Notes under the pieces: generated by a model
What the model saw: only the letters and a program-made list of their open reading frames with translations
The model's database searches: none
Told to the model about the DNA's origin: nothing
Assembly (NCBI GenBank): GCA_035289485.1
Contig: DATDXA010000029.1
Location: forward strand, 2,691 to 66,690
DNA: 64,000 bases
Reading direction: 5' to 3'
From: an archaeon
GTDB lineage: Archaea > Iainarchaeota > Iainarchaeia > Iainarchaeales > Iainarchaeaceae
Made by a program: the position numbers and the translations under genes
Shown here: positions 6,546-56,549 of the stretch, in pieces
Layout: every line of letters starts with the position of its first letter
Numbering within the stretch: the first letter of the stretch is position 1

Positions 6546-7282
6546 AGAGCTATATGGGTGTTGCCGGGGACTATTATGAAAAGGCCCATAGTTCGAGGCA
6601 CAAATCCCAGGGATTTTTTTATGAAACACGCGAAGAGTACATGCTTGATTTCATGGGCCTGAAAGGAAATGAAAAAATAATCGATGTCGGGTGCGGATCC
6701 GGGACTTTTTCAAGGGTGCTAGCGGAAAAACACCCCAAAGCAAAAATAACCGGGGTAGACATCTCCGAACACGCAATAAGTTTTGCGCGGAAGACGGCGA
6801 AGGAGAAAAATATTGGGAATCTCAAATTCATTTCCGCCTCGATAAGCTCGATACCCGTAAAAAGCGGCTCGTTTGATGTTGCCGTGGTTTCGCATTTGAT
6901 TGAGCATGTAAAAAACCCGGAAAATGACCTCAAGGAAGTTAACCGCATCCTAAAGCCCAACGGAATCTTGATACTCACAACTCCGAACTATTTTTCCCTC
7001 TGGCCGCTTGCGGAGATGGTTTTTGACAGGACAATGGCCGAAAAAAATTACAGCCTGGATGAGCAGCACATCAGCAGGTTCACTTCATTTTCAATAAAAA
7101 AGCCGATAAATAACAAGGGGTTTGCCATCCTTAGAGAGAAAACCCTTTACATTTTTTCGCTTGAGGCAAGCTTACTGTCAAGAAGGCTTGGGCAGGCAAT
7201 ATTCGCCATTGATAAGCTCCTTGATTTTTTGCCAATAGGGATGGTTGTGTACCTGAAGGCAAGGAAAATAACGAACTTATGA
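6542..7282 (+). CDS. Class I SAM-dependent methyltransferase.
   Basis: Motif I IIDVGCGSGTFS and a Methyltransf_11-like layout. There is a 4-nt ATGA overlap with the upstream gene. Confidence 0.85.
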   Translation: MKSYMGVAGDYYEKAHSSRHKSQGFFYETREEYMLDFMGLKGNEKIIDVGCGSGTFSRVLAEKHPKAKITGVDISEHAISFARKTAKEKNIGNLKFISASISSIPVKSGSFDVAVVSHLIEHVKNPENDLKEVNRILKPNGILILTTPNYFSLWPLAEMVFDRTMAEKNYSLDEQHISRFTSFSIKKPINNKGFAILREKTLYIFSLEASLLSRRLGQAIFAIDKLLDFLPIGMVVYLKARKITNL

Positions 7283-8198: not shown

Positions 8199-9131
8199 TT
8201 AGGCTGTCCTGAAAAAGTCGATTGTCTTGCGCAACCCATCGCCAAGGCCAACTTCTGGCTGCCAGCCAAGTTTCTGCTTTGCAAGTGAAATGTCGGGGAG
8301 CCTCCTTTCAGGGTCATCTGCCGGAAGGTCTGCGTAAACAAGCTCGTATCTTCCGCCCGCAATCGAGGTGATTAGCCTTGCAAGGCCAAGGATGGTGATT
8401 TCATTTGGGTTGCCAAGATTTACCGGGCTTGTTTCTTGGGAATTCATGAGCTTGTATAGGCCATCCACCATGTCGCTCACATAGCAAAAGCTCCTTGTCT
8501 GCGAGCCGTCCCCGTATATGGTAATCGGCTTTTGCGCAAGTGCCTGGACTATAAAGTTCGGGACAACCCTGCCGTCATCTTTGCGCATGCGCGGGCCATA
8601 GGTGTTGAATATCCTTGCAATCTTCACATCCAGGGAATATTTTTCACGGTAAGAGTAGCACAGTGCCTCGCCAAAGCGCTTGGCCTCATCATAGCAGCTG
8701 CGCGGCCCGAAGGAATTCACATTGCCCCAATAGGTTTCCTTCTGCGGGTGCTCAAGCGGGTTGCCGTAAACTTCGGAGGTCGAGGCGAAAAGGAATTTGG
8801 CGCCTTTTGACCGCGCAAAATCGAGGAGATTTTTCACACCGGCCGAGCCCGCCTCAAGGGTTTGCAGAGGCTTTTGCTGGTAATCTACGGGCGAAGCTGG
8901 GGACGCAAGATTGTATATCTGTGAAATTTTTCCGCCCACTGAAATTTTCTTTGAGATGTCTTTTTTAAGGAAAGAAAATTTGCCGCTTTTGAGCAGGTGC
9001 GAAATATTTTTTTTGTTTCCGGTAATGAGGCTGTCAACACAAACAACCTGATAACCCCTTGCAATGAGATAATCGCAAAGGTGCGAGCCTATAAAGCCGG
9101 CGCCACCCGCCACCAGTATGCGCTCAGCCAT
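8199..9131 (-). CDS. uxs: UDP-glucuronate decarboxylase (UDP-xylose synthase), SDR family.
   Basis: ERILVAGGAGFIGSHLCDYL...VVCVDSLITGNKKNI and the catalytic Y-D-E-A-K-R match the UXS/ArnA-C pattern. The true start is most likely MAERI at 9131; the listed ORF extends upstream into the next gene. Confidence 0.75.
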   Translation of the reverse strand: MAERILVAGGAGFIGSHLCDYLIARGYQVVCVDSLITGNKKNISHLLKSGKFSFLKKDISKKISVGGKISQIYNLASPASPVDYQQKPLQTLEAGSAGVKNLLDFARSKGAKFLFASTSEVYGNPLEHPQKETYWGNVNSFGPRSCYDEAKRFGEALCYSYREKYSLDVKIARIFNTYGPRMRKDDGRVVPNFIVQALAQKPITIYGDGSQTRSFCYVSDMVDGLYKLMNSQETSPVNLGNPNEITILGLARLITSIAGGRYELVYADLPADDPERRLPDISLAKQKLGWQPEVGLGDGLRKTIDFFRTA

Positions 9132-15150: not shown

Positions 15151-16296
15151 ATGTACATGGCAACTGTAATTGGAGCAGGGCCTGCGGGGCTTGCCGCCGC
15201 AAAGCGCATACAGGAGAGGGGCTGGAAAACCGCGGTAATCGAGGAGCACCCTGTGGTTGGAGACCCTGTTGCATGCACGGGGCTAATTAGCGCAACCGGA
15301 GTGCAATCTCTAAACATCCGCAAGGAAACCGAGGAAGTTCTCATGAATAAAATTCGCGGGGCGCAGATTTTCTCGCCAAACCACGAGATGATTGAAATAA
15401 AGAGAAGCGAAACAGTAGCATATGTCGTTGACCGCGCGGGGTTTGACCGCGTGCTTGCAAGGAACGCAACCAATGCGGGGGTTGATTTGAAGACTAGCAC
15501 GAGAATGATTGATATCCGCAATGAAACGATTTTTGTCGAGCACAAGGGGCGCGGCGAGCTCTTAAAATCCAAGGTTATTGTGGGCGCGGATGGCGTGAAT
15601 TCTAGGACAAGGAAAATAATGGGAATCAACACAACCGCCGCGGATTACGTGCACGCATACCAGGTGGACGCAACAGGAAAATTCGACCCGCGGTATGTGC
15701 AGCTCTTTTTCGGGGATTATGCGAAGGATTTTTTCGCATGGATTGTTCCTGAGAGCGAAACCCGCGCGCGCGTCGGGCTTGCAAGCACTTCCGGAAACAT
15801 TCGGAAAGATTTCAATGTTTTCGCAAATGAGAAGAATGTGGGCGGGGAATTCTGCGACATGTGCAGCTCATTAATCCCGATAGGAGAGCCGCTCAAAACC
15901 GTGGCAAAGGACAATGTGCTTTTGGTGGGAGATTCTGCCTTCCAGACCAAAGCGACCACGGGCGGCGGAATAATCACAGGAATGATTGCCGGGCAGATTG
16001 CAGGAGATGTCATTCACAAGCACTTCAAGGACAACGCGACCCTTAAGAACTATGAAAAGGATGTTGTGAACCTCAATAAGGAGCTGCGGCTTCACTGGAA
16101 GATAAGGCAGTACATGAACAGCAAAAGCGAGGACCAGATTGACAGGCTTTTTAGGGGCATGAACAAGGCAAAAATCGGCGAATTCCTTTCTGAACATGGC
16201 GATATGGACATGCCGAGCAAATTTGTGGGAAAAGTCCTCACAAAGCCGTCGATGTGGAGGCTTTTTCCGGAAGCGCTTAGGTTAATTGGCACATAA
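15151..16296 (+). CDS. Geranylgeranyl reductase family flavoprotein (digeranylgeranylglycerophospholipid reductase-like).
   Basis: FAD-binding N-terminus VIGAGPAGLAAAKRIQERG...VIEEH...ACTGLIS, and a GDSAF motif near residue 250. Confidence 0.8.
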   Translation: MYMATVIGAGPAGLAAAKRIQERGWKTAVIEEHPVVGDPVACTGLISATGVQSLNIRKETEEVLMNKIRGAQIFSPNHEMIEIKRSETVAYVVDRAGFDRVLARNATNAGVDLKTSTRMIDIRNETIFVEHKGRGELLKSKVIVGADGVNSRTRKIMGINTTAADYVHAYQVDATGKFDPRYVQLFFGDYAKDFFAWIVPESETRARVGLASTSGNIRKDFNVFANEKNVGGEFCDMCSSLIPIGEPLKTVAKDNVLLVGDSAFQTKATTGGGIITGMIAGQIAGDVIHKHFKDNATLKNYEKDVVNLNKELRLHWKIRQYMNSKSEDQIDRLFRGMNKAKIGEFLSEHGDMDMPSKFVGKVLTKPSMWRLFPEALRLIGT

Positions 16297-16610
16297 ATGC
16301 GCGCAAAATATTTTTTTCTTTCACCTGCGCGCGCAAAAAATGCGTTTATATAAATATTTTGTTTTTTTCTAAAAAAAATTTCATTCCAAATCTGTTTTTC
16401 CAATATATTAAAGAATAATAATACGGAAATTTTGCGCCGCACGGAAAAATTTATTTTGTAACGGGAATAAATGTCACAGGCGCGCGGAAAAATCACAAAC
16501 AATACTAAAAAAATAATTTTTGCGCTTCGGAAAAAATCTTTTAGTGAAATTCGCAAACAAAAAATAATTTTTGCAAAATTTCCGCAAAAAAAATTAACAG
16601 CGGGAGCTGA

Positions 16611-16618
16611 TTTATAAA
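16611..16618 (+). promoter_or_regulatory. TATA box (TTTATAAA) for the giant adhesin gene.
   Basis: Canonical archaeal TATA element. It lies about 90 bp upstream of the hydrophobic signal-peptide coding region. Confidence 0.45.
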
Positions 16619-16702
16619 GACATCTCAACGAAGATAAACTGGTGTGGGGGAATTCAGACGAACTTTGATAAACTGCAGCACGGAAATTCAAATTTCATAA
16701 AA

Positions 16703-19700
16703 ATATTTTCAATCTTTTTCTCATTGATTATTATTTCAGCTGCGGCAAGCGCGGCGCATGAAGCAAATGTAACTCTTACACCAAACATTACAACCTGTTC
16801 TGAAGAAGGAAATACTTTCAATGTAAGTGTTGAAAACACTCCAGGAAGCACTGATGACATAATACAGGTTGAAATTTACAAAGCATTAGCAGGAATTTCA
16901 AATTTTTCCTGCGGTAGCGCACCGTTCGGATGGACATTGTTCTCGTTTATCGACAGATGTATATATGTGACAGAGCTTGCAGGTACAGAAAAAATTGCGC
17001 CAACTGAAACCCTTAATTTTACATTTGATGCTACAATGAACAGTAATGCCTGTATAAGCAACTTCACTGTGGTAACAGTCGATGACGCAACTCCGGTTGG
17101 AGACCGCGACACTCACCTTAAAGGCGTTTCAATCGACTGCACCCCGCCGATTGTGCAGAAATTTGTTGGCGACCCTGCAATACCGCTGACATGCGATGCA
17201 AAGGACATTAACGCGCAGGGCGGAGCAAATCTCGCGTGCAACTTCTGGATTACCGATGACACCATACTAAGCTTTTCAGCACAGGACAATAATACGGTTC
17301 TTGACGTGAATAAGCATATAATCCAGGCTGATGGCAACCTAATGTGCGACACTGGACTTGCTTACTGCCAGTGGAAATATGATGTTGACGGCTCTGCCCC
17401 TGAAAATTGGGAAAATGAATGTGAAAATAATTATGGGGGAATTTACGAAAATGGATGGTGTAAATTCTCAAATGGCAATACTTGGCAATTATCTGGCATT
17501 AAATTTGATGAGGACTCACAGCACAATATAGAAGTTGAGTGCTTTGACAATGCCGGAAATTCCACTTCAATTGAAGAAACCGACAAGGTCGACCAAACAG
17601 ACCCTGAGACGATTAAGACCCTCGGAGAGCCAAAAAAAGTTGTTGGGAATATTGAATGGATTAGCACTTCAACTCCGATAACACTCGCGCCAAATGACCC
17701 TGACCCGAGCGGATTTTCGTGCAATATTGGTGTTGATGAAACCAAATGGGTGAATATACTCGCGCCAGGCGGTCCAATACTAAGTCAGGATGATTTCTGC
17801 AATTATCCGGAGCTTTACTGTAACTCAAATTATATCAATACTCAAGACGAAAGCCTAAATTGGCAGGATTACACAGGGTCGTTCACAAAGGACGAGGAAT
17901 CGTGCCACGTGCTCATGTACTACAGCACTGATTTGATAGGCAATACACAAGACATCAACTTTAATTGCTTCTTTGTTGACGATACGCCACCTGCAATTGT
18001 AAAAGAGATAGGCGAGCCCAGTTCCGGCGACTGCCCTCCGGGACAAGAGGACTTATGTTACATAACTTCGGACACTAATATCACATTGCACTGCACAGAT
18101 ACAGGCCCTCACCCATCAGGCGGAGAAGTCGCCTGGTATAGGTACAGGTACACAGAAGACGGAAATACATGGAGCGACTGGCTGCCAACACTTGAAGATT
18201 GTGAAGGTCCGGAGTATGACACCAACGGGAATTGGTGCGACTGGAACGTTCAGAAGAAAGTTCACCTCCCTGAAGATTCGCTCCATCAACTGCAGTGGTA
18301 CTGCGAGGATGCGGTCGGAAACAAGAGCGAAATTGATGATGAATTCATAAGAGTTGACAATGAGCCGCCGACAATAACAAAGACAATGCTTGGCGATGCC
18401 AATGTTGATTATTTGGGAGACTGCCCGCCAGACCAGAACAGCAATGATGTCTGCTATGTTGCGGATAACGGAAGGGGTGGAGTGAATGTTTCAGTCACTG
18501 ATTTGGGCAACCCGGTGCACGCGGCAAACAACGTCACATGCAACTATGCGATGGAATGGGCAACTGATGAAAGTACCTGCCTTTTACACGCAGGAAGCTG
18601 GACAGGAACCACATGTGTGATTGATTCAGGATTATTTGTAGAACCTGACACGAACATACTCTTCGGCGAAGATTCAACGCACACCCTCAAAATCTGGTGC
18701 GCAGATTCGGTTGGAAACACAGCATATGATGAGGAAGTATTCCTAGTCGATTCAACGCCGCCGGTGTCAACCAAAACTTTCGGCCCTGAAGGGACGTTTT
18801 ACATTGAAGAAGAGTGCGAATACCAAGATGGATATGAGGGAGAGTATCAGTGCGAAGAAAAGGTCAAGGTTGAATGGATAGACACCAACACCCTCATTGA
18901 CATCAATGCAACAGACAACAAGGTCGGTGTTGACAAGACTTATTACAAGGTAATTGGGCCGGTTGATGATGTGGTCTGTGAGACGCAGTGCGAAGCATGG
19001 CAGGCATATGAAGAGCAAACAGAAGACTGGAACGTTTACACAGGGCCATTCAACGGCATCGGACAGTCGTGCCATGTGCTTGAATATTACAGCGTTGACA
19101 AGCTTGGCAATACTGAACAAACAAAGTACAATTGCTTCTTTGTGGATAAGACAGTTCCGTTAGTGGGCAAGATTAATGGTGACGAAGAGAACATTGCAAT
19201 TGCAGATTCAGGGGAGGCACTTTTCACGAATGCGAACAATCCGGATGGAAATTTCCACTGGGTTACAAGCTCAACGCCCATAACGATTACATGCACAGAC
19301 CAGCTCCCGCACCCTTCAGGAGTCCGAGAAGTCGGATTCAAGGTCGCATACGACCAGCCGGCATGGCCAACAGATGTCACGACGGATTATTGTGAAGGAG
19401 AGGTCGATGAGAGCGGATACTGCATAGCACAGCTCCAAAACGACAGCTTCACATTCTATTTCAATGAAGAAGAGGAGTCAATGCACAGCCTTGAGTACTA
19501 CTGCATAGATAATGTCGGCAAGGAAAGCGGAGTGCACAAGCAATATTACAAGGTAGATGACACTCCGCCGCAGTTCCAGAAAATTATCAGCGGGCCTTCA
19601 TATGGCGACTGCTCATTTGCAGGAACGGCAACTCCGGATTCAAACTGTTACGTTGACACTGCAACTTCAATTGATTTGAATATAGTCGACGGCGGAGCAA

Positions 19701-21481
19701 TCTGCGCGGTCGGGCTTGACAGCGAAGGATGCAGATGGAGATACCAGGTGCACGAGCAAGGATTCTCAACAGACGGCAACTGGTCAGACTGGAACAGCTC
19801 GTTCCCAATAGTATTCCCAGAAGAGAGCTATCACACGCTTGAAGTTGCGTGCAGCGACAGATTAGGCAATAGCACTGAGGGAGACATTGAATACTTCGTA
19901 GTGGACAAGACTCCGCCTGTGACGACAAAGCAGTTCAGCGAGGCAGGGCCTTACTTCTCATGCGTTGACTGGTGCGAAGCAGGAAACAAGTATGAGTGGC
20001 AGGTAGAAAATTGTGTGCAGCAATACTGCGCGGAGGATGTAGAAGGGCACTGGGTACCGCAGTGGGGAACATCAGACCTTAACATTTTGCTAAGCGCCTA
20101 CGACCCGCAGCCGCACCCAAGCGGAGTTGACGAGACAAAGTTTAGGATTAGCATGGTTGATGACGAGTTCTGCGGAACCGGAATACAAGAAGAGTACGAA
20201 GAGCCGCAAGTGTACTGTGAAGATGCTATTGGAAATGATTTGAACGGCGGATGGCAGACATACACAGGGGCGCCATTCAATGTGCCGGAGCAATCATGCC
20301 ACATGATAGAATACTACTCGGTTGATAATGTTCAGAAGACGGAGCAGACAAAGAAGGAATGTATTTACATCGACAATACCGGGCCAGAACCTGGCAAGAC
20401 TGTTGGGCAGCCATCAACAGAGTGGCACCCAAATGTCAATTGGACGCCGGGCAACCCGGTTGGCGACCAGCCAAGCGCGTTCTACCCATACATTGATGAC
20501 GGCAACCTGCTAAATGGGGAATGCTGGAGCGGTTCGAACTCAATCGACTGCTGGAAAGTAACGCTCATGACACCAGTGTATATGAGCTGCAACGACCCAG
20601 AGCCGCATCCGGTTGACCACAGTAAGATGTTCTTTATGGTAGGGCTTGATGGCGATGACGCAACCGAGAATTATTGTAATAAGGTAGATTACCAGCATGG
20701 TGTCGAAGCGAACATGACGGAAGATGGCTGGTGTGAAGTGAACAAGGACGACCTCACGTTCTACTTCCAGGAAGAAACAGAGCACAATCTCAAGTTCTAC
20801 TGTGAGGATGCACTAGGCAACGTCGGGCCAATTGATGATGAGAAGTTCAAGGTTGAGGGCGACAAGTTCAAGATTAAGCTAAACAAAAAATGGAACCTAA
20901 TATCGGTGCCATTTGTACTGCAGGATAGCAACATAGTGAAAGTATTCAAAGAAGTTGAGGATGAAATAGATTCAGTATGGACATTCGACGCTTTCACAGG
21001 CCAGTGGTATGTGTATAGGCCTTCGAGCCCGGGAACAAGCAACCTTGATTCAGTGGATTCCGGAATGGGCTACTGGGTACTCGCGCTTGATGAGAATGTG
21101 CTCGCAATCGGAGGAGCGCTATTCAGCCCCATTACAACTCCGCCAAGCAGGAGCCTCAAGGCAGGATGGAACCTTATAGGATATTACGGAACGGATGTGC
21201 TGCACAGCCACCCTGAAGCCGCAAAGTACTATGACGGGCCTGACGGGCACGGAAGGGTTGCTGGATGCTCACTGCTCTCACTTAAGACCAGCCTCACGGA
21301 TTTGGGATGGACTTCGCTTGAAACATATTGGGAACCATATAACCCCAACCAGTGGAAGTTCTTTGAGCCGGATGACAGGATGGATCCCGGTGCAGGGTAC
21401 TGGGTGCTTGCCTCCAAAGACGGCATCTACGCATACACTTCAATTGACGAGGGAGATTGCTCGCTCACAGATCTTGACTGA
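16703..21481 (+). CDS. Giant secreted adhesin-like protein (about 1590 aa) made of about 13 tandem Cys-containing Ig-like modules.
   Basis: Recurrent module signature ...SCHVLEYYSVDKLGNTEQTKYNCFFVDKT(P)P..., present in 9 or more recognisable copies. This is the D-x-x-G-N ... V-D-x-T-P-P hallmark of bacterial-Ig-like/cadherin-like surface domains. The protein is dense in N-glycosylation sequons. The first canonical in-frame start is TTG 16724, but a perfect signal peptide (KIFSIFFSLIIISAAASAAHEA) is encoded from 16703. Confidence 0.75.
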   Translation: MFSIFFSLIIISAAASAAHEANVTLTPNITTCSEEGNTFNVSVENTPGSTDDIIQVEIYKALAGISNFSCGSAPFGWTLFSFIDRCIYVTELAGTEKIAPTETLNFTFDATMNSNACISNFTVVTVDDATPVGDRDTHLKGVSIDCTPPIVQKFVGDPAIPLTCDAKDINAQGGANLACNFWITDDTILSFSAQDNNTVLDVNKHIIQADGNLMCDTGLAYCQWKYDVDGSAPENWENECENNYGGIYENGWCKFSNGNTWQLSGIKFDEDSQHNIEVECFDNAGNSTSIEETDKVDQTDPETIKTLGEPKKVVGNIEWISTSTPITLAPNDPDPSGFSCNIGVDETKWVNILAPGGPILSQDDFCNYPELYCNSNYINTQDESLNWQDYTGSFTKDEESCHVLMYYSTDLIGNTQDINFNCFFVDDTPPAIVKEIGEPSSGDCPPGQEDLCYITSDTNITLHCTDTGPHPSGGEVAWYRYRYTEDGNTWSDWLPTLEDCEGPEYDTNGNWCDWNVQKKVHLPEDSLHQLQWYCEDAVGNKSEIDDEFIRVDNEPPTITKTMLGDANVDYLGDCPPDQNSNDVCYVADNGRGGVNVSVTDLGNPVHAANNVTCNYAMEWATDESTCLLHAGSWTGTTCVIDSGLFVEPDTNILFGEDSTHTLKIWCADSVGNTAYDEEVFLVDSTPPVSTKTFGPEGTFYIEEECEYQDGYEGEYQCEEKVKVEWIDTNTLIDINATDNKVGVDKTYYKVIGPVDDVVCETQCEAWQAYEEQTEDWNVYTGPFNGIGQSCHVLEYYSVDKLGNTEQTKYNCFFVDKTVPLVGKINGDEENIAIADSGEALFTNANNPDGNFHWVTSSTPITITCTDQLPHPSGVREVGFKVAYDQPAWPTDVTTDYCEGEVDESGYCIAQLQNDSFTFYFNEEEESMHSLEYYCIDNVGKESGVHKQYYKVDDTPPQFQKIISGPSYGDCSFAGTATPDSNCYVDTATSIDLNIVDGGAICAVGLDSEGCRWRYQVHEQGFSTDGNWSDWNSSFPIVFPEESYHTLEVACSDRLGNSTEGDIEYFVVDKTPPVTTKQFSEAGPYFSCVDWCEAGNKYEWQVENCVQQYCAEDVEGHWVPQWGTSDLNILLSAYDPQPHPSGVDETKFRISMVDDEFCGTGIQEEYEEPQVYCEDAIGNDLNGGWQTYTGAPFNVPEQSCHMIEYYSVDNVQKTEQTKKECIYIDNTGPEPGKTVGQPSTEWHPNVNWTPGNPVGDQPSAFYPYIDDGNLLNGECWSGSNSIDCWKVTLMTPVYMSCNDPEPHPVDHSKMFFMVGLDGDDATENYCNKVDYQHGVEANMTEDGWCEVNKDDLTFYFQEETEHNLKFYCEDALGNVGPIDDEKFKVEGDKFKIKLNKKWNLISVPFVLQDSNIVKVFKEVEDEIDSVWTFDAFTGQWYVYRPSSPGTSNLDSVDSGMGYWVLALDENVLAIGGALFSPITTPPSRSLKAGWNLIGYYGTDVLHSHPEAAKYYDGPDGHGRVAGCSLLSLKTSLTDLGWTSLETYWEPYNPNQWKFFEPDDRMDPGAGYWVLASKDGIYAYTSIDEGDCSLTDLD

Positions 21482-31801: not shown

Positions 31802-32545
31802 ATGAAACACGATTTGGAATTTGTTGAATTGCAAAAAACCAGCCTTGATGGGTACACGCTCATTGAAGGCTTTCCCGGAATGGGCCTTGTTGGAACAATT
31901 GCGGCAAAATATATTGTGGAAAAGCTCAACTATGAGTACATTGGATACGTTGATTCGGATATTTTCCTCCCCGTTGTGAGAATTCATGAAGGGCTCCCTG
32001 TGCGGCCTGCGCGCATTTACGCCGACAAGAAAAACAAGGTCGCGGTACTGATTTCTGAGCAGGTTATTTCAAAGCAGTTCACATACCTTGTTGCGAAAAA
32101 AACCGCGGACTGGATAAAGGAAAAGGGAATTTCTGAATTGATTTCACTTTCTGGAGTGCACGCAGCGGACAATGAGCAGAAGGCGATAATTTATGGGATT
32201 GCGGCAAACGAAAAATCCAAAGAGCTTCTAAAGCAGTACAAGCTAATGGAAATCGGAGAGGGAATAACAACAGGAATTACTGCTCTGATACTTCTCGAAC
32301 TGCGAAATTCAAAAATCAACGCGATTTCAATTCTTGGAAATGTGCAGGTTTCCGCCGATTACAAGGCTTCTGCCGAGGTTCTGAAAAAACTTAATGAAAT
32401 TTTGGGGCTTAATTTGAATGTCGAGCCGCTTCTTGAGGAGGCGCGCGAGACTGAAAAACAGCTGCTCTCGCAGCTCCAAAAGCTCAAGGACACAAAGGAC
32501 AATTCGGATAAATTTGAGACGAAAACGCCGCCTTTGATAACGTAA
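31802..32545 (+). CDS. PAC2 family protein (proteasome assembly chaperone-like, COG1938).
   Basis: N-terminal LIEGFPGMGLVGTIAAKYIVEKL, which is characteristic of the PAC2 family. Confidence 0.6.
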   Translation: MKHDLEFVELQKTSLDGYTLIEGFPGMGLVGTIAAKYIVEKLNYEYIGYVDSDIFLPVVRIHEGLPVRPARIYADKKNKVAVLISEQVISKQFTYLVAKKTADWIKEKGISELISLSGVHAADNEQKAIIYGIAANEKSKELLKQYKLMEIGEGITTGITALILLELRNSKINAISILGNVQVSADYKASAEVLKKLNEILGLNLNVEPLLEEARETEKQLLSQLQKLKDTKDNSDKFETKTPPLIT

Positions 32546-32595: not shown

Positions 32596-33495
32596 ATGAC
32601 CGGCAAACCTTCTGGTAAATCAAATGCAGGAAAACAATCTTTGGGCAAAGCCCTGCTTGGGTTGGCGGCAAGAAAAAGGCATGAACCTGCGGACACAAGA
32701 AGGATATTCAAAAATGTTGGCGGCATATACGACCATGTGATTGATGCAACTCTCCAAAGAGAGGGAGTCCTGCACGCCCAAAAAGAAAAGACCAATTTAT
32801 CTGAACTGCATGATTCAAGCATCTTTCTTTTCAAGTATATTTTAGACCGCAAGGATCCGCGGTGGTCACTGGCGTCTGCACATGCTGGCATGAAGAAAAA
32901 AAGGGTATTTGAGCCGATAAATATGGAAAATGCCCTGCTTGCAGCATATGCGTCACATTACAAAGGCGAGAGGGGAAAATTTTCCGTTTTCAATAGTCTG
33001 GAGCATATAACCCAACTGGCAAGGGCGTTAAAGAACATTGAAATAGGATTCGCACGCGTTATGCCGCTGCGGGAAAAAATGAGGCTCAAAAATGGGTATG
33101 AAATTCAATTCGAAAGGACTCGGTCAATACAAAGGGGAAAAGACAAAAGGGGAGTTACAGGCTGCCCTGAGGCGCTCTGGCAACTTCAGCTTTACCATGA
33201 TGGCGGCTACCTCGGAAGGATAGGCTTCAACTTCCACGTGGAGGAGAATAGGCCGGTTGTTACGGTGGCAAATGTTCAGGGAGTTGGAAAGGAATTCGGA
33301 AAACATAATGAAGTGCTTGGTATCAAGAGAGAATTCGGAACTGATCTTGGCGGATTGCTCTGCGGAAAGCTCAAGGAAATTATGGGGCAGGAATTCGAGT
33401 ACCGCGGAGTCATGAATAGGGAGCAGAACGTTGTTCAGTATGCAATGGCTTTCCGGCGAGGAAAAATACCGGTTTTCAAGGCTAAGGGCAGATAA
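32596..33495 (+). CDS. Hypothetical protein (299 aa).
   Basis: Long ORF with no recognisable motifs. It sits at the boundary of the low-GC island. Confidence 0.5.
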   Translation: MTGKPSGKSNAGKQSLGKALLGLAARKRHEPADTRRIFKNVGGIYDHVIDATLQREGVLHAQKEKTNLSELHDSSIFLFKYILDRKDPRWSLASAHAGMKKKRVFEPINMENALLAAYASHYKGERGKFSVFNSLEHITQLARALKNIEIGFARVMPLREKMRLKNGYEIQFERTRSIQRGKDKRGVTGCPEALWQLQLYHDGGYLGRIGFNFHVEENRPVVTVANVQGVGKEFGKHNEVLGIKREFGTDLGGLLCGKLKEIMGQEFEYRGVMNREQNVVQYAMAFRRGKIPVFKAKGR

Positions 33496-33499
33496 TGAA

Positions 33500-34830
33500 A
33501 ACGGCGTTGTCTAAAAACTCAGGCTTTGAATGAGACTTTTTGGTTTTTTGGGACTTCTGTCCAAAAAGTGTTTTTGAGGTCAAATTTGTAATAAGCCCTT
33601 ATTAGGCAGCAGATGTTGTGGCATATTATTTTGCAGGCCATTTCGGAGAAGTTTGCTGTGAGGTTTTTTGTAAATAAGATGTCTCCAAACTTTTGTTTTA
33701 TCATGTAAAATGTGGTTTCCACGTTGCTTCGTTTGTGGTAGTGTTCGTTGAATTTTTGTGGGTTTTCTTGGAAAAAGAATAGTGCCTTTCTCCAGACCGG
33801 GCCATTGCCCCTGCCTCTTTCATTGCTATTGCTTTTGAATGGAATAAAACCGGTTGCTCCGATTTCATCAATGAAATTGTAGTTTTCTTTGGAGAGATAT
33901 CCTTTGTCTGCAACTACTTCTTTTACGTCAAAAGCTAGGGCAGTCCTTTTCACAAGATATTTGAGTTGAGGCGCATCCCCAACAAACTGGTCTGTAAGTA
34001 CTGCCGATGTAACGACATTGGTTTTCACGCCAATTGTTATATGCGCTTTCCTGTAAACTCTCTCCTGATTTTCATTGTTTTTATCTACAGACCAATGACC
34101 AAATCTGGAAGTAGAGAACCCTGTTGAATCAACCCCAAAAACAAGCTCATCACACTGCACTAGTGGTCTTGCAGACAATTCTATTAACGAAGTAAGGACA
34201 CCGCACAATTTTTTGTTGTTGAAGTAATTGAGGATTGTAGCTCTTGAAGGCACCTTTTGTAGAAATCCTTTTTGTTTGTAATCTTCGAGAGTTGACATTA
34301 ACCTTCCGGCTGAGCGCCTATAGTAAACTTTCAAAAGCATACAAAAAATCACGTCTTTTATGTCAGAGATTGGTCTGCCTGTTTTCTGTATTTTTTCAAT
34401 GCTCAATTGTTCAAGCAGTTCGTCAATAAGGCTGTCAAACATGTGCGCTTCCTCAGCTTGATATTCATTATATGCTTTCCAGTCTGTAGGCGGAATTGGC
34501 TGACTTTGATATTTGAAAGGCATGGGCTCCGACATTTGCCTTTTGCCCCAAGCAAACTTGAAATGGCACTTAGCGCACTCATATTTTTGCCGCCAAATGC
34601 CCTTCATAATATTGGCGTATGCCTTGCCTTTCTTCACAAGCTTTTCATGCCCGCATTTCCTGCAAAATTTTGGCTCGCTTCTCAGGTTATCCATAAGTAA
34701 ACACTTTTCTGCCGAATTATGATATACTTGATAGGTAAAGTATATAAATATTCTGCCGAAAAATGAATATTTATATAGAAGTTCTGCCTAATAATAGTGA
34801 AAATTTAATACTAACAGGCAGATAATTATG
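33500..34830 (-). mobile_element. Insertion-sequence-like element: one DDE transposase gene flanked by TTCTGCC-containing repeats.
   Basis: 11-bp inverted repeat TTATTAGGCAG (33599-33609) paired with CTGCCTAATAA (34784-34794). Three direct TTCTGCC(G/T)AA copies at 34707, 34751 and 34782, plus an inverted copy at 34815. GC content is lower than the surroundings. Confidence 0.6.
33519..34694 (-). CDS. DDE transposase with an N-terminal zinc-ribbon (IS5/IS1595-like).
   Basis: N-terminal CRKCGHE...CAKCHF zinc finger. C-terminal ADKGY ... HYHKRSNVETTFYMIKQKFG, matching the DDE_Tnp_1 Y-x-R-x3-E-x6-K signature. Confidence 0.8.
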   Translation of the reverse strand: MDNLRSEPKFCRKCGHEKLVKKGKAYANIMKGIWRQKYECAKCHFKFAWGKRQMSEPMPFKYQSQPIPPTDWKAYNEYQAEEAHMFDSLIDELLEQLSIEKIQKTGRPISDIKDVIFCMLLKVYYRRSAGRLMSTLEDYKQKGFLQKVPSRATILNYFNNKKLCGVLTSLIELSARPLVQCDELVFGVDSTGFSTSRFGHWSVDKNNENQERVYRKAHITIGVKTNVVTSAVLTDQFVGDAPQLKYLVKRTALAFDVKEVVADKGYLSKENYNFIDEIGATGFIPFKSNSNERGRGNGPVWRKALFFFQENPQKFNEHYHKRSNVETTFYMIKQKFGDILFTKNLTANFSEMACKIICHNICCLIRAYYKFDLKNTFWTEVPKNQKVSFKA

Positions 34831-35055
34831 AAACTACAAAGGGACTATCTTGACGATAAAGCCATGCAAATGGCTGGAGTAATAGAAAAGACAGTAAACG
34901 TAACCTATGACGGAAAACAATGCGCGATAAAAGTACCGTCCAAGCTAGCGCGTATTCTGCGTATTAAAAAAGGGGATAAAGTCAAATTTACTCTGTTAAT
35001 GCCTGAGGGAAAAGTCTTGCCGAAAAAAAATGAACTGAAGATAGAAATGATTTGA
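34828..35055 (+). CDS. AbrB/MazE/SpoVT-type swapped-hairpin DNA-binding protein.
   Basis: QCAIKVPSKLARILRIKKGDKVKF, an SpoVT-AbrB-like motif. The ATG follows directly after an inverted copy of the TTCTGCC repeat. Confidence 0.6.
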   Translation: MKLQRDYLDDKAMQMAGVIEKTVNVTYDGKQCAIKVPSKLARILRIKKGDKVKFTLLMPEGKVLPKKNELKIEMI

Positions 35056-35352
35056 ATGAAGAACGACAGGCGAAAAAAACTGCTCCTTGAAGTAATGGAG
35101 CGCCGAAAATATCCGGTAACCACGAGAGAGCTCGCCAGGATATCTATAATGAGTCCGATTACAGTAAAAAAGAAATTAAGCAAATTGGAAAAAGAAAAAA
35201 AAGTTAGAAAAAGAAAAACTGGAGACAAAATCGAGTGGATGCTGTCACAAGCCTACGCAAAAATGGAACGCCAATATTTCGAATTATTGGACAACATTGA
35301 GATTATCCCAAAGGAAAAAACCATTAAAAGGCATATCAATAAAACGAAATAA
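35056..35352 (+). CDS. Winged-helix transcriptional regulator (small HTH protein).
   Basis: LLLEVMERRKYPVTTRELARISIMSPITVKKKLSKLEKEKKV is wHTH-like. The ATG overlaps the stop of the AbrB-like gene. Confidence 0.55.
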   Translation: MKNDRRKKLLLEVMERRKYPVTTRELARISIMSPITVKKKLSKLEKEKKVRKRKTGDKIEWMLSQAYAKMERQYFELLDNIEIIPKEKTIKRHINKTK

Positions 35353-35360
35353 TTTGTGAG

Positions 35361-36257
35361 TTAAACAAATCCTTTGAATGAGCCTGCGATAAATTCGCCG
35401 TATATTTTTTCCCCTTTTTTGTTATAGACAAAAACGGCATAGCGTTTTACTTTTTTGATTTTTCCTTGTTTGTGTTGTGTGTTATAGCCTGCTTTATTTG
35501 CAGATTTTTGAATTTGCGGTTCAAGTTTCTTGATTGTTTGTGTATTGATTCCAGCACCGTGAATTGCTATATAGTTCAACCCTAAGGACAAGTAGTAGTG
35601 AACTTTACCCAAGAGTTCATCTTTATCGGTTCCTTCGTGGACAAATAAAACTCCTTTGTATCGGGTAACATAATCAAGAACCTGTTGAATAGCATTTTTA
35701 TCAATTAACCCTATATCGTTGATGTAAGCTAGAACTTCTGGAATGTATCCTTCAGTATACAAATTACAAAATTGTTTCTCTTCTTGATTAAGTTCAAGTT
35801 TCCTTGCAGCCGCTATATCTCGGTCTCCTTTTTCGTAAAGTTCTTGTATGTACATGCACTCTTTTATGCGAGCACGATATGCCACATCCAACAATTTTAC
35901 GAATGGATACGGGTAATCAGTATTCTCAAAAAATTGTTTGTACTTATCGTATTCTTCATTGAATTTTGTTTCTATTACTCTGGTTGGCACTCCTTTTTCC
36001 AAGCGCTTTGCTAACCATTGGCGGTCCTTATCCCTATCTAAGTTTCCAAAAGAAATGTCCCCGTCACTTTTTTCTATTACATATACTGACACGGGCGCGT
36101 TTACGTCACCGTTTATTACAATTTGTTTCAGACCTTTATTTAGTTCGGGATTTTTAAATTTGAGAAATTTGTCTTTCAAAATTGGCAATATTTTAAGAAG
36201 TTCGCCGAGTGCTTCGAGCCATGGTCCTACTACTGGTATGCTCCCCACTACGGACAC
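35361..36257 (-). CDS. Hypothetical protein (298 aa) in the low-GC island.
   Basis: Long ORF in AT-rich DNA with no clear family assignment. A weak degenerate hG[SD]-x13-DxD nucleotidyltransferase-like pattern (INGDVNAPVSVYVIEKSDGD) was noted. Confidence 0.5.
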   Translation of the reverse strand: MSVVGSIPVVGPWLEALGELLKILPILKDKFLKFKNPELNKGLKQIVINGDVNAPVSVYVIEKSDGDISFGNLDRDKDRQWLAKRLEKGVPTRVIETKFNEEYDKYKQFFENTDYPYPFVKLLDVAYRARIKECMYIQELYEKGDRDIAAARKLELNQEEKQFCNLYTEGYIPEVLAYINDIGLIDKNAIQQVLDYVTRYKGVLFVHEGTDKDELLGKVHYYLSLGLNYIAIHGAGINTQTIKKLEPQIQKSANKAGYNTQHKQGKIKKVKRYAVFVYNKKGEKIYGEFIAGSFKGFV

Positions 36258-36262
36258 GGAAG

Positions 36263-36625
36263 CTACTCCTTGTCCGCTAGATATCTGCTCAAACTACTAA
36301 GATTATTTTTTATAAAAACATGGGGGGAATTAGCAGGCATGAGAGCCCCAATTTCAGTAACTTTAAACTCTTGCTCATCTGACGAGAGTACTCTTTTCCC
36401 AGTATCTTTGAATACTACAAATCCATCGTCATCTATGGCGTAACCTAATTCTTTTATGATTTCTCGGATTTGCTTTTTGTTTGTATAGATGGTTATAGGT
36501 TGGTCGTTAGAGATTTCATCTATGGAAACCTCCTCAAAAATCTCAGTTTTGGCTTTGCCAGCCATATTCATCCCGCTCATAATACCAAACCCCAACATAT
36601 AAGCTTTTTGGTCACGAAAAACCAA
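36263..36625 (-). CDS. Hypothetical protein (about 100-120 aa), co-operonic with the 298-aa protein.
   Basis: There is a 5-bp gap to the downstream gene. Several candidate starts exist (M1, M10, M21). No recognisable motif. Confidence 0.45.
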   Translation of the reverse strand: MVFRDQKAYMLGFGIMSGMNMAGKAKTEIFEEVSIDEISNDQPITIYTNKKQIREIIKELGYAIDDDGFVVFKDTGKRVLSSDEQEFKVTEIGALMPANSPHVFIKNNLSSLSRYLADKE

Positions 36626-36777
36626 TTTGTGTCAATATACTAAACACCCTGCAAAACTCTTATATTTGACATACTTTTGGGCTCGGTTAAAAATGCCTAA
36701 AGTGCATTTTTCTCAATAAACGCCGGTTAAATTAGCCAAAGTAAACTTTAAAAGGAGAAAGAAGCAGTAGTCCCTTA

Positions 36778-36978
36778 ATGAAAAAGGTTCTTTCAATTGT
36801 AGTATTTCTTCTTGTGATTGGACTTTTTTTAACTGCCGGTTGCACCAGTAGCCAAAATAATCAGGGCAATACCCAAGGTCAAAATCCACAAGGCGGGGTG
36901 TCGCCGACAAATAATCAACCTTCTAACGACGAAGGAAATACTGGGACACTTCCGCAACCGCCAGAACTACCAGAGTAA
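36778..36978 (+). CDS. Small secreted lipoprotein-like protein (Gln/Asn/Gly-rich).
   Basis: Signal peptide MKKVLSIVVFLLVIGLFLTAGC with lipobox-like LTAGC, then a low-complexity polar tail. Confidence 0.55.
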   Translation: MKKVLSIVVFLLVIGLFLTAGCTSSQNNQGNTQGQNPQGGVSPTNNQPSNDEGNTGTLPQPPELPE

Positions 36979-36992
36979 AAGGGGAAAACAAA

Positions 36993-37676
36993 ATGAAACA
37001 ATTGATGCTAATTGGATTAGTTGCCTTATTATTGGCAGGATTAGTTTTTGCTGGCGATTACAATCCACAAAGTAATGAAGTTACAGTTAACCTATACAAA
37101 GGGTGGAACTTAGTTCCACACGGAGTATATGGATGTAACAACAGCTTAGGGGCAGTTTTCTATTATTCAACACTTAGTAAGGGGTATGTCGGTGCAAATG
37201 TCAAAAATGGAGCTATAGGTGCCGATAGTAAGTATTTCCCAAGTAAAACCGCTTATGATAGTTTCACCCAAAACGAAATTTCTTCACAGTTATCAGGTGC
37301 ATCGTGGATATACTCAACCGCTAATTGCTCGGCGAAAAAAAGTTACTTGCTTCTATCTGGGAAAGGTGATGAATTTGTTAATAGTTATCCAATAAAAAGT
37401 GGCTGGAATTTCATTGACATTTCACCCGTTATGGTTGGAAAAACACTGCCAACGCTATTTTCGAAATGCAGTGTTTTAGCAAGTAATAGCTGGGTAAATT
37501 CTGAACAGCATTGGTATTACTCATCAAGTTCAAGTGAAATTGCAAGAACCTTTGCTGAAGACACAAGCATATTAACAAACTCAGCTGTTGGAACAACTTT
37601 AATAGTAAAAGTTGCAAGTGACTGCTCTCTTTTAGCTGGAGAAGAGACAGTTTCACCACCCTCAGTACCAAACTGA
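36993..37676 (+). CDS. Secreted hypothetical protein (227 aa).
   Basis: Signal peptide MKQLMLIGLVALLLAGLVFAG. No recognisable domain. Low-GC DNA. Confidence 0.55.
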   Translation: MKQLMLIGLVALLLAGLVFAGDYNPQSNEVTVNLYKGWNLVPHGVYGCNNSLGAVFYYSTLSKGYVGANVKNGAIGADSKYFPSKTAYDSFTQNEISSQLSGASWIYSTANCSAKKSYLLLSGKGDEFVNSYPIKSGWNFIDISPVMVGKTLPTLFSKCSVLASNSWVNSEQHWYYSSSSSEIARTFAEDTSILTNSAVGTTLIVKVASDCSLLAGEETVSPPSVPN

Positions 37677-37811
37677 CCAACATTGAAATTATTTAAAGGA
37701 TAAGTCGATTTGTGACAATACGAGTTTTTAGACGGAAGTCCCTAAAAAATAGTTTTTAGACAACGCCAATGAAAACGAAGCGTTTATTAACATAAAATCC
37801 CAATTCTATCC

Positions 37812-44758: not shown

Positions 44759-46639
44759 ATGGTTGTCTTTGCTAATGTCGTTGATGCCGCAATTGTCGCA
44801 TATCTTGTTTTTGGCGCCGGGACTTGGGGCTACATTTTCCTGCGTACCGGCTGGCCAAATATCCGGCAGCTTGAGCAAAGTTACAAGAAGGGCTGGAGCA
44901 TTGCATTTGGAATTTCGTTTGCCGCAACCATGGCGGTGATTGTGGGGGCCGCGGCATATTTCATGCCGCAATACGGGAGCGTCACAGAGCTGGTTTTGGT
45001 CGGGTCTCCGGCGGTTTTCATCTCAGGGATAATCGTGTTTTCATTCAAGAGAAGATTCCTGCGCAGGCACGGCCTCACGGTTTCGGTGCCGAAAAGGGTT
45101 GTTGTCGCAAGCATTGCTGCAAGGCGCGCAATGGAGCGCATACCAACCGCAATGTATGTAAGCGCGGGCCAGCTCGCGCTTGCGGGTGATTCTGTTTCAT
45201 TGGACGAAGACGGAGGAATACAGTTCGAGACGCGGCAGACGCGCGCCGCAGCGCAGAAAAAAGGCGCGGGCATGAAGGCGCATGATTTGGAATCCCACAA
45301 GATTGAAGAGCCGACGACGCGAATGATAGAAACGGAAAAAATGTTTGTTGAGGAGCGCTCTGCTCCCCGCGCCAGAGCGCCGCCCGCACAGGCGAAGGCC
45401 GCAAGGGGCAGCACGGAAAAAGAAATCAGCCCGCTGCAGGAGCGGCCGCGCGAGGGCGCGCAGGCTTTAGGCACAGGGAACAAAGAGTGGGCAAAACCCG
45501 GGGCGCAAACAAAACCCCTGAGCGCAAGGCAGATGCATCCCGCGGAGAAGCGCTCATTCTTTGCGGGATTTTTTGGCCAGAAGAAAAAGCCCGCGCAGGC
45601 ACCTGTGCAGCCATCGCCCGCTGCAAAGCCAATTCCGGCCGCATCTGCAAAGCCGTTGCCGGCTGCAGCGAAAGCTTATGTGCCGACACGCGCTGAAATA
45701 GAGGATGCGAAAAAAAGCATAACCGAAGCCGAGAGGGAAATGGAAATAATAGGGCGCAGGATCACGCTCAAAGAGCTCGCGCTTGCAGAAAGGGAGGCCG
45801 AGGAAATAAGGCGCGAACTTGAGGCGCATGATGCGGCAAGGGCAAAGGCGGCCGCAGTGGGAGCGGCAGCGAAAAAGGCCGCGCCCGCTGGCGGCGGAAT
45901 TTTTTCCTCGTTTGGAAAATTGTTCTCCAAAAAAAGCGCGGCGGAACCGTTGCCAGCGAAAGTTCGGCCAGCTGGCACAGTGCACGGAGAGCAGCCTGCG
46001 GCTAAGCCTGCGCAGAATTTGCCGGCAGTAATTGTAAAGCAAAAGCCAAGTGATGCCCAAAATGCAAAGGCCGGCACTGCTGGCACTGCAAAAGGGCCCG
46101 GAAAAGGATGGGAGGGGCAAAAAGTGCTTGCGCCGCAAAAGCCGCCCCAAAAGGAGCCTCTTGGGCAGCGCCCTGCATCTGACCAGTTTGAGGTCAAAGG
46201 CGGCATGGATGAGCAGAGAATGGAGAGGCTAAGGCGCAGGCTTGCAGAGATTGAGGCCCAGAAGGCCACGGCGCAGCGGAGCGGTTTTGGCGGCGCGATG
46301 GATGCGCCAAGGCGCATAAGCGAAAGCTTCCGGCAGGACATGGGCGGAACGCGGGCAAGAAAGTCCACAGAGAACATACTCAGGATTCTTGAGAAAAAAT
46401 CCGCGGAAAAGACCGGGCAGGTCATTTCTGGCGAACAGGCAAGGCGCGAGGCGGAGTCCTCAAAGGAGTTCATAATGGAGAGCGTGAGGGAGGCTAGCTT
46501 TGAGGAAGGGGCGCAGGCGCAGCCCGCTGCGATGACGCAGGAGATTGAGAGGCGCAGGGCTGAAATGGTTCATGCAGAAGAGGCATTGCCAAAATCCGCG
46601 TTGCTGCTAAAAAAGCTTTTGAAAGAGGAAAGTGATTGA
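44759..46639 (+). CDS. Membrane protein with 3 N-terminal TM helices and a ~500-aa Ala/Lys/Pro/Glu-rich disordered region.
   Basis: N-terminal helices (AIVAYLVFGAGTWGYIFL, IAFGISFAATMAVIVGAAAYF, LVLVGSPAVFISGIIVFSF), then low-complexity charged sequence. The local GC is high, so the many overlapping ORFs here are artefacts. Confidence 0.55.
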   Translation: MVVFANVVDAAIVAYLVFGAGTWGYIFLRTGWPNIRQLEQSYKKGWSIAFGISFAATMAVIVGAAAYFMPQYGSVTELVLVGSPAVFISGIIVFSFKRRFLRRHGLTVSVPKRVVVASIAARRAMERIPTAMYVSAGQLALAGDSVSLDEDGGIQFETRQTRAAAQKKGAGMKAHDLESHKIEEPTTRMIETEKMFVEERSAPRARAPPAQAKAARGSTEKEISPLQERPREGAQALGTGNKEWAKPGAQTKPLSARQMHPAEKRSFFAGFFGQKKKPAQAPVQPSPAAKPIPAASAKPLPAAAKAYVPTRAEIEDAKKSITEAEREMEIIGRRITLKELALAEREAEEIRRELEAHDAARAKAAAVGAAAKKAAPAGGGIFSSFGKLFSKKSAAEPLPAKVRPAGTVHGEQPAAKPAQNLPAVIVKQKPSDAQNAKAGTAGTAKGPGKGWEGQKVLAPQKPPQKEPLGQRPASDQFEVKGGMDEQRMERLRRRLAEIEAQKATAQRSGFGGAMDAPRRISESFRQDMGGTRARKSTENILRILEKKSAEKTGQVISGEQARREAESSKEFIMESVREASFEEGAQAQPAAMTQEIERRRAEMVHAEEALPKSALLLKKLLKEESD

Positions 46640-47391
46640 AAATGGATGAAGAGGTACCAAGGAGAATGAGGAGATTTTACAGGGGCGAGAAGCCAACAGA
46701 GGAGGAGGTTAAGCACGAGAGCGCGCAGATTGCGATAAGCGAGGTTGACAGGTTCAGGGAAACCCAGGGCAGATACCCCGCAAGAAACGAGCTTGACGAG
46801 ATAAGCCAGAACGTCTTTGACCAGCTCAAAAGGGAGCTCGCCATTGCAGATGCGGAGGAGAAGGAGAAATCCACGGCGCAGGAAAAATGGGCAAAGCAGG
46901 CAAAAGACGGGAAAAGCTTTTTGGAGCTGCGCAGGCAAAAGCATGTGGCCGCGAAGACAGAGGAAAAAGCGGCGAAAGGCACTGCAAACGGGAAGAAGAA
47001 AATAACGGAGGAAGAGGAAACCCCAATTGGCGGGCCGGAAGAATATGGCGAGGAAGCCGAAGGCCAAGAGCCAAGCGGCGAAATGGAAGTTGATTCGGAA
47101 GAAATTTCCGATGATAAGAATGTGCAAAAGCTCGCGGAGATGGATGAGGTCTCAGGCCTTGAAAAGGAGCTCTCGGACGATGACTCTGACCTTGTTGAGA
47201 GGAAAATCGATTCAGATTTGAACGTGTGCCCAAGGTGCGGCAATCGGGCGGACGAACTTATCTATTGCCCAAGCTGCGGCGAGGCTTTCTGCGACCACTG
47301 CGCAAAGGCCGTTGAGGCGCAGGGAGACTCGGTAAAATACACATGCCCAAAGTGCATGAACGTGTTCAAAAAATCTAAGTCGAGGATGTAG
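46636..47391 (+). CDS. Acidic coiled-coil protein with a C-terminal double zinc-ribbon.
   Basis: The C-terminus CPRCGNRADELIYCPSCGEAFCDHCAKAV...YTCPKCM supplies 8 Cys. ATGA overlap with the upstream gene. Confidence 0.55.
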   Translation: MKMDEEVPRRMRRFYRGEKPTEEEVKHESAQIAISEVDRFRETQGRYPARNELDEISQNVFDQLKRELAIADAEEKEKSTAQEKWAKQAKDGKSFLELRRQKHVAAKTEEKAAKGTANGKKKITEEEETPIGGPEEYGEEAEGQEPSGEMEVDSEEISDDKNVQKLAEMDEVSGLEKELSDDDSDLVERKIDSDLNVCPRCGNRADELIYCPSCGEAFCDHCAKAVEAQGDSVKYTCPKCMNVFKKSKSRM

Positions 47392-56364: not shown

Positions 56365-56549
56365 ACCTTTGGCTATGAATTGGGAATTCGTATTATTATA
56401 CTTATTTATAAAGGCACGAATCCGAGATAAAGAGCATTAGGAGTGCCGGAGGGGCAATGCCGGAAAATCCGCGCGCATTCCGCCATGCACGTGCCGCAAT
56501 AATCAATACTATTTTAAATCCGGAAACCATTCATAATAAAGAGATTCAA

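Follow-up and report, generated by a model that had tools for sequence, protein, structure and literature searches.

A Low-GC Island in an Iainarchaeota Genome Is an IS903-like Transporter Insertion Sequence Carrying a Candidate Conflict Module

Introduction

Is the low guanine-cytosine (GC) island in an Iainarchaeota contig an insertion sequence (IS) that happens to lie next to other foreign genes, or is it a single mobile unit, and what might the genes that it carries do? The island is located within a stretch of 64,000 nucleotides (the window; positions 2,691 to 66,690 of the forward strand of contig DATDXA010000029.1, GenBank assembly GCA_035289485.1) belonging to an archaeon of the family Iainarchaeaceae. 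An initial annotation, made from the sequence alone, described an IS followed by an AbrB-like regulator, a winged-helix regulator, an operon of two proteins lacking recognisable domains and two small secreted proteins, all of whose open reading frames (ORFs) are present in the window. We find instead that the whole island is one IS5-family, IS903-like transporter IS with passenger genes. Two of these passengers, encoding a small acidic protein and a larger basic protein, constitute an accessory module, sporadic and mobile, that occurs in DPANN and a few other archaea and moves between lineages on transposons. We favor, with moderate confidence, a toxin-antitoxin (TA), abortive-infection or defence type of role for this horizontally acquired pair.

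Boundaries and Composition of the Element

The GC content calculated in 500-nt windows is 0.34–0.40 across approximately 33500–37750 and 0.46–0.52 immediately outside, shifting sharply at both ends of the island; the rest of the window has a mean of 0.488. Individual genes follow the same pattern, with GC contents of 0.36–0.43 in the seven island genes and 0.46–0.50 in the genes on either side. The low-GC island of the initial annotation, which was to be doubted if the deviation disappeared in windowed GC, is borne out by these values, although the figure of 52% given for its flanks was slightly high.

Located exactly at the two GC transitions are the terminal inverted repeats of a transposon. 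The left repeat, GGCGTTGTCTAAAAACT (17 bp; 33503..33519, + strand), forms the end beside the 3' end of the transposase gene, and the right repeat (37751..37767, - strand) is its perfect inverted copy; these are the only two matches to the sequence in the window, even with three mismatches allowed. Outside them is a 9-bp direct duplication, AATGAAAAC, of which the left copy (33494..33502) overlaps the TAA stop codon of a host gene encoding 299 amino acids (aa) and the right copy (37768..37776) abuts the outer side of the right terminal repeat. By our own estimate, the number of perfect 17-mer inverted pairs expected by chance within 4.7 kb is ~6e-4, and the abutting 9-mer direct repeat brings in a further chance factor of ~4e-6. 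The element so delimited (33503–37767, 4265 bp) comprises the transposase gene and six passenger ORFs. Because the far terminal repeat is at 37751–37767 and the 9-bp duplication lies outside both ends, the regulators, the operon and the two genes for putative secreted proteins are passengers within one transposon. The composition, the terminal repeats and the duplication together also support the earlier view of the island as foreign and mobile.

The same locus was present in ~18 contigs from several groundwater-type metagenome assemblies, and independent ENA, Logan and JGI assemblies contain the same element junctions, always equally spaced. Exact-protein look-ups with the transposase, the 298-aa passenger protein and the 299-aa host protein returned one single context each time (17–18 contigs per look-up). 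Excising the element in silico leaves a plausible original site (empty-site sequence GGCAGATAATGAAAACGAAGCGTTTATT), in which the TAA of the 299-aa gene is followed after ~40 bp by a gene of 285 aa. Insertion of the element at the stop codon of the 299-aa gene, we propose, produced the 9-bp duplication of the target.

Two other accounts of the anatomy of the island were considered. An ordinary IS of ~1.3 kb ending near 34.82 kb, with independently acquired low-GC genes alongside it, would be in keeping with the normal size of an IS5-family element, which the transposase gene and short flanks match, and with the occurrence of the 10-mer GGCAGATAAT at 33487 and 34817. We rejected this 10-mer pair (33487–33496 and 34817–34826) as IS ends; the copies are direct rather than inverted, the left copy is outside the element, and by our estimate chance alone would give ~1.5 such pairs in a region this large. 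No sequence resembling the terminal repeat is found near the start of the transposase gene (34.7–34.83 kb) with three mismatches allowed, and therefore the transposon is the 4265-bp unit rather than a 1.3-kb IS with neighbors. With the true partner repeat and target duplication at 37751–37776, the initial reading of an IS followed by other genes is contradicted, and we regard the 1.3-kb anatomy as highly improbable. Only slightly more credible is an origin of the island as an integrated virus or plasmid that has since decayed, beside which an IS merely landed and whose regulators are of a kind typical of archaeal viruses. Small AbrB-like and winged-helix proteins are indeed common in archaeal mobile elements, and an element that encodes an integrase and a DUF87 ATPase has one homologue of the gene pair at its edge. 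However, library scans of the island proteins identified no capsid, replication or integrase gene, and searches of IMG/VR, INPHARED and PLSDB for a viral or plasmid origin produced no matches. The inverted repeats and 9-bp duplication, moreover, enclose the whole island including the transposase, which fits a single transposition better.

Of the two copies of GGCAGATAAT, one falls where the 299-aa host gene ends and the other just before the start codon of the 75-aa passenger gene.

Relationship to IS903 and Transporter IS

The transposase gene (33519–34694, - strand) encodes a 391-aa IS5-family DDE protein with a zinc-ribbon-like CxxC...CxxC N-terminus. The protein matches Pfam DDE_Tnp_1 (PF01609; E 4.1e-20, 72.8 bits, cutoff 23), and its best NCBIfam model is transpos_IS5_2 (8.6e-35, 120.6 bits). 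Since the latter score is below the 140-bit cutoff of this curated IS5 equivalog, we consider the transposase to be a divergent member of the family. A tblastn search with the transposase recovered IS5/IS903B transposases on plasmids. The initial annotation of a DDE transposase with a zinc ribbon holds as regards the DDE_Tnp_1 match and the paired cysteines, the zinc-ribbon model Zn_ribbon_IS1595 reaching only E=0.13.

Its repeats and transposase relate the window element to the IS903 group (IS903, IS903B, and IS102), of which it is a divergent relative in archaea, organised as a transporter IS. It shares with this group a DDE_Tnp_1 transposase, a 9-bp target duplication as known for IS903 and IS102 (PMC12670165), terminal repeats starting with GGC.TTGT, and a transposase gene that reaches into one terminal repeat. 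The window repeat and the repeat of IS903B (GGCTTTGTTGAATAAATC, taken from plasmid NZ_CP084211) are identical at 12 of 17 positions. In contrast to the group, the window transposase, which is ~23% identical to its counterparts over the catalytic half, has an additional N-terminal zinc-ribbon-like region, and its host is archaeal. The element is also 4.27 kb in length compared with ~1.06 kb for the group, because ~2.9 kb of cargo is located between the transposase promoter and one end. A subterminal second copy of the repeat core, GTCTAAAAACT (37723..37733, - strand), lies 28 bp inside the right end and is possibly an extra transposase-binding site.

A transporter IS (tIS) is an IS derivative carrying passenger genes (PMC9330008), and the window transposon is built likewise: its passengers are enclosed by one target duplication and one pair of terminal repeats, only one transposase is encoded, six ORFs separate the transposase gene from the far repeat, and there is no second end inside. 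The tIS examples cited in the literature that we compared are, however, bacterial, and a 2019 survey of archaeal mobile elements did not detect DNA transposons with passenger genes in archaea (PMC6563490), a class that is documented here by exact terminal repeats and target duplications. A further difference from the bacterial examples is that two archaeal elements of different IS families, the window element and one from a Thermoplasmatota genome described below, share one cargo pair.

In one short contig (L035:1372-1424), 53 nt replace 26 nt inside the transposase gene (window 33953-33978) and no transposase gene was called, which may reflect an inactivating indel variant or an artefact of scaffolding.

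A Conserved Gene Pair

The pair is encoded on the - strand. Passenger gene 3, the small subunit, encodes an acidic protein of ~100–105 aa (36263..36580) within a maximal ORF of 120 aa (36263-36625), gene callers and homologues favoring a length of ~100–111 aa over this maximum; its homologues likewise lie upstream of the large gene. Passenger gene 4, the large subunit, encodes a basic protein of 298 aa (35361-36257), and its GTG start codon is preceded by the stop codon of the small gene at a distance of 5 nt.

Word-indexed homology searches returned 2–3 proteins; for the 298-aa protein they gave a single relative (42% identity), encoded on a 1.1-kb contig whose upstream gene fragment is homologous to the small protein of the window. 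The family was revealed only by exhaustive HMMER searching, in which a two-sequence profile identified 82 clusters at E < 1e-3 among 1.84 billion representatives, nearly all of them 270–350 aa in length. The large proteins have in common the motifs GRK(L/F)CNLY..GY, (F/I)F(I/V)H, and YIAIH(S/G)AG.N, and the most conserved polar residues among 74 full-length members are C164, N165, Y171, H233, and Y258. Scanning 185,579 species genomes with one subfamily pattern located eight loci in eight metagenome-assembled genomes (MAGs), labelled as Woesearchaeota, Pacearchaeota, Nanoarchaeota, and, in one case, Thermoplasmatota. A metagenome scan with the close subfamily found only one short contig.

A small gene (~90–105 aa), homologous to that of the window, is directly upstream of the large gene in all 18 loci having upstream sequence, which are mostly from DPANN archaea. 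Spacing in the 17 loci other than the window ranges from a 4-nt overlap to ~130 nt, with most gaps no longer than 12 nt. The small protein has an isoelectric point (pI) of 4.3–5.1 in nine of ten complete homologues, and basic values predominate among the large proteins (median pI 8.4). Relatives of the pair were not found in the IMG/VR, phage or plasmid collections, and a literature search found no publication describing it.

Predicted Structure of the Large Protein

An AlphaFold model of the 298-aa protein, based on an alignment of 41 sequences, had a mean predicted local distance difference test score (pLDDT) of 86.9 and a predicted template modelling score (pTM) of 0.71. The model comprises an N-terminal amphipathic helix and small alpha/beta region of lower confidence, a helical middle domain (residues ~100–198), and a C-terminal beta-alpha-beta-alpha-beta-beta domain (residues ~203–290) with a pLDDT > 90. 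In a Foldseek search of the PDB, ~40 of the top 50 matches were Alba-superfamily chains (probability 0.95–1.0). Those to the C-terminal domain included Rpp20/Rpp25, Sso10b2, Alba1, Pop6/Pop7, and Mja10b, at a probability of 1.0 and E values of 1e-3 to 1e-2, with target-normalised template modelling (TM) scores of up to 0.78. On the basis of this model, the C-terminal ~90 residues of the protein have an Alba fold. The earlier description of an operon without recognisable domains is accordingly right in that neither gene has a family-level annotation and wrong with respect to this domain; matches to the nucleotidyltransferase, HEPN or nuclease folds that had been suspected were absent from Foldseek searches against the PDB and BFVD.

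The topology of the domain is that of the Alba/Rpp20/Rpp25 (Pop6/Pop7)/SpoVS superfamily. Unlike Alba, however, it is fused to an N-terminal region of ~200 residues without an assigned fold, a nearly invariant histidine (H233) takes the place of the basic residues in the binding loop, and the large protein always occurs with a small acidic partner. An HHalign alignment to Sso10b (its sequence checked against PDB 2bky), itself nonsignificant, placed YIAIHSAG.N..KA on the nucleic-acid-binding loop IVIKARGRAISKA. Membership of the Alba family at the sequence level (PF01918/Alba clan) was rejected, the window protein having no match; one of the 41 relatives does match Pfam Alba (5.7e-6). We also dropped a candidate zinc site composed of C164, H207, and H233, because H207 is not conserved. 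In our reading the large protein would bind nucleic acid, with H233 situated in the loop that bears the basic binding residues of Alba, and the conserved Cys, Asn, and Tyr residues on the helix neighboring this loop hint at a functional pocket. The defence literature mentions Alba-like domains only in an accessory, nucleic-acid-binding capacity, within a defence helicase (PMC12458937).

Genomic Contexts of the Pair

A transposon also carries the pair in a Thermoplasmatota MAG of ~48% GC (JAYEPK010000188, locus L024:6624-8984), in which the pair has 34% GC and lies in an IS6-family element of ~2.35 kb. The ends of this element are inverted and of IS6 type (GGTTCTGTTTCATAG... at 6632; ...AACAGAACC, with its last position at 8976), and it is flanked by a perfect 8-bp duplication, CGACAATG. 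Its GC content is 33–38%, the low-GC tract coincides exactly with the element, and the only other coding sequence inside is an IS240/IS6-type transposase split into two ORFs. Based on these contents, ends and duplication, the pair is the sole cargo of a second IS unrelated to that of the window. The left end of the L024 element is itself duplicated (6632 and 6791).

In a Nanoarchaeota MAG (JAHISS010000087; L019:5954-8364), the space between rpl15 and secY, genes that are normally adjacent, is occupied by an IS200-like Y1 transposase gene together with the oppositely oriented pair. Reading by eye also identified a VapB(AbrB)-VapC-like pair ~3 kb away from this locus.

Restriction-modification (R-M) genes of three different systems adjoin the pair. 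It lies between a C5 methylase and R.HaeIII (L012-L017), downstream of an N6/N4 methylase-RAMA gene and R.HinfI (L042), and downstream of a type I hsdM-hsdS-hsdR-ygjP cluster (L048). Elsewhere the pair faces a tyrosine integrase gene in convergent orientation, on the border of a gene block with a DUF87/VirB4-like ATPase (L046), or adjoins a Fic gene (L025). The initial annotation had suggested looking for the cassette beside integrases or transposases in other genomes, and it does recur in such settings, being IS cargo at two loci (the window included) and neighboring R-M systems at three, an integrase at one, and Fic at one. We rejected a generic repeat-bounded cassette transposon, as the other loci lack exact flanking inverted repeats of at least 13 nt.

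At one HaeIII R-M locus (L013:2270-3211), a nucleotidyltransferase (NTP_transf_2/Polbeta) gene and an adjacent 125-aa gene resemble an MNT-HEPN pair, and with a Bro-N gene also nearby the region looks like a defence island.

Proposed Function

The pair resembles type II TA and abortive-infection pairs in having tightly coupled, co-oriented genes with the small acidic member first and the larger basic member second, and in its sporadic distribution, its carriage on transposons, and its adjoining R-M systems and integrase. In the mechanism that we favor, the large protein would bind, and possibly modify or cleave, RNA or DNA by means of its Alba-like domain and the adjacent conserved Cys/Asn/Tyr/His surface. 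The small acidic protein would bind the large one and neutralise or regulate it, and the pair would act as an addiction or defence module, as its genomic contexts suggest. We put forward more tentatively, as a possibility that may well prove wrong, the specific proposal of an undescribed DPANN-centred archaeal TA/abortive-infection system with an Alba-like His/Cys/Asn/Tyr effector, spread between phyla by IS5/IS6 DDE transposons.

A number of observations weigh against this explanation of the element and its cargo. To our knowledge, there is no precedent for a toxin of ~290 aa with an Alba fold, and in contrast to type II TA systems the large protein has this size and fold, the small protein lacks a recognisable DNA-binding domain, and neither matches a known toxin, antitoxin or defence family in Pfam, NCBIfam or PADLOC. 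Searches of PHROGs and PDB sequences with both proteins were likewise without a match. Similarity to Alba is at the level of the fold only, with Foldseek E values as given above and an HHalign comparison to Sso10b that was not significant (probability 0.9%). When the C-terminal domains were isolated, nine of ten, including that of the window protein, had no Pfam Alba-clan match at E<1, the tenth (P0030) matching SpoVS at E 0.077. A mobile-element or defence neighbor was found in 8 of the 12 loci with usable context, a qualitative count with no background rate, and the other four show housekeeping neighbors only (three of them identified by eye from ORF translations). The window element, finally, is single-copy and present in every contig with these genes, neither an empty site nor a second insertion being found in the 17–18 contigs of each look-up.

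PADLOC, a check that the initial annotation had recommended, found no known defence system in the island, and PADLOC-DB v2 gave only noise-level matches (E at least 1e-3) to the helix-turn-helix (HTH) parts of Csa3/CARF models, all from the 98-aa regulator. Of the candidate mobile defence or TA-like module proposed at the outset, the mobility and the conflict-like context have held up, without a match to a known defence or toxin family, and the function is deduced from context.

The main alternative, which we consider unlikely although it deserves to be taken seriously, is that the pair forms an accessory nucleic-acid-binding complex with no part in conflict, either of the chromatin or RNA-processing Alba/Rpp20-Rpp25 type or a helper in the maintenance of mobile DNA, and is passively carried. 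In favor of such a complex, the Alba fold is one typically seen in chromatin proteins and RNase P/MRP subunits, several loci lie among ribosomal-protein, SecY, Cdc48 or GatB genes, and Foldseek detected no toxin-like or nuclease fold. It is harder to reconcile with the sporadic occurrence of the family, in 82 clusters of the 1.84 billion representatives and eight loci of the 185,579 species genomes (the latter from the one-pattern scan). Nor does it sit easily with the foreign low GC of the pair in two hosts of ~48% GC, its capture by two unrelated IS families, in one of which it is the sole cargo, or its recurrence beside R-M systems, an integrase and Fic. The initial annotation would have been countered by clear housekeeping homologs in conserved synteny; the context in fact differs in every lineage.

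With their tiny genomes, DPANN archaea are obligate symbionts whose defence and addiction systems are very little known. A strictly paired family that lacks database annotation, has been captured by two unrelated IS, and repeatedly adjoins R-M systems is a concrete candidate for a new conflict module, and Alba as an effector fold has not been linked to conflict systems as a core component. If the TA or defence interpretation is correct, these would be among the first documented cargo transposons spreading a conflict module in archaea. Should the function prove mundane, they would still provide a clean case of low-GC DNA of the DPANN type passing horizontally into ~48% GC archaeal genomes.

Other Passenger Genes

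The transposase gene and the first passenger gene diverge from an AT-rich intergenic region (34695..34827) with TATA-like boxes and TTCTGCC repeats, which is presumed to be a promoter/operator region. Three direct TTCTGCC repeats occur here within 82 bp (34707, 34751, and 34782), and an inverted TCTGCC (34817-34822) immediately precedes the start of the 75-aa gene. As the window-wide count of TTCTGCC is at chance level (14 observed versus 12.9 expected), only this local clustering is notable. The initial annotation had identified TTCTGCC as a subterminal IS repeat with an inverted copy before the 75-aa gene; the repeats and the inverted TCTGCC are present, but they are in the divergent promoter region and not at the IS ends.

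Passenger gene 1 (34828-35055, + strand) encodes a 75-aa protein that is probably an AbrB/SpoVT-type DNA binder, with sub-threshold matches confined to residues 30–67, namely MazE_antitoxin (E 0.013; 15.9 bits, cutoff 24.7), PrlF (E 0.005–0.02) and AbrB chains in the PDB (E ~0.2). Passenger gene 2 (35056-35352, + strand) encodes a 98-aa protein, probably of the winged helix-turn-helix type, which matches HTH_Crp_2, FaeA, HTH_24, and LexA_DNA_bind at E values of 1e-3 to 1e-2, all likewise sub-threshold. The start codon of the second gene directly follows the stop codon of the first. The coupling of an AbrB-like and a winged-helix regulator noted initially is thus correct as to the abutting genes and plausible as to the assignments, although the matches fall below family thresholds. 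We infer that, through the TTCTGCC repeats, the two proteins may control the divergent promoter region.

The remaining passengers are encoded on the + strand between the pair and the right end of the element. Passenger gene 5 (36778-36978), an ORF called as a gene in some assemblies, encodes a putative 66-aa lipoprotein with the N-terminus ...LFLTAGC, in which a lipobox-like signal was read by eye. Passenger gene 6 (36993-37676) encodes a putative secreted protein of 227 aa, with a signal-like N-terminus also recognised by eye and no family match in Pfam, NCBIfam or PHROGs scans. Both had been described as small secreted proteins that close the island; the ORFs exist, and they are passengers inside the transposon.

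Additional Observations

Compositional anomalies are also found elsewhere in the window. A second GC dip (0.378; 16001-17000) covers the start of a 1585-aa ORF (16724-21481) and the sequence just before it. The GC content is raised to 0.55–0.59 in 45000-47000 and 57000-63500, with a very strong AT skew of up to +0.6, and the latter stretch coincides with a 2353-aa ORF (56457-63518) that is probably a compositionally biased giant surface protein. The window and several assemblies have an intact PAC2-family gene (31802-32545; 247 aa), which is called as two pieces (48 and 189 aa) in others (loci compared: L001/L002/L026/L029), suggesting a frameshift variant or an assembly error in part of the population.

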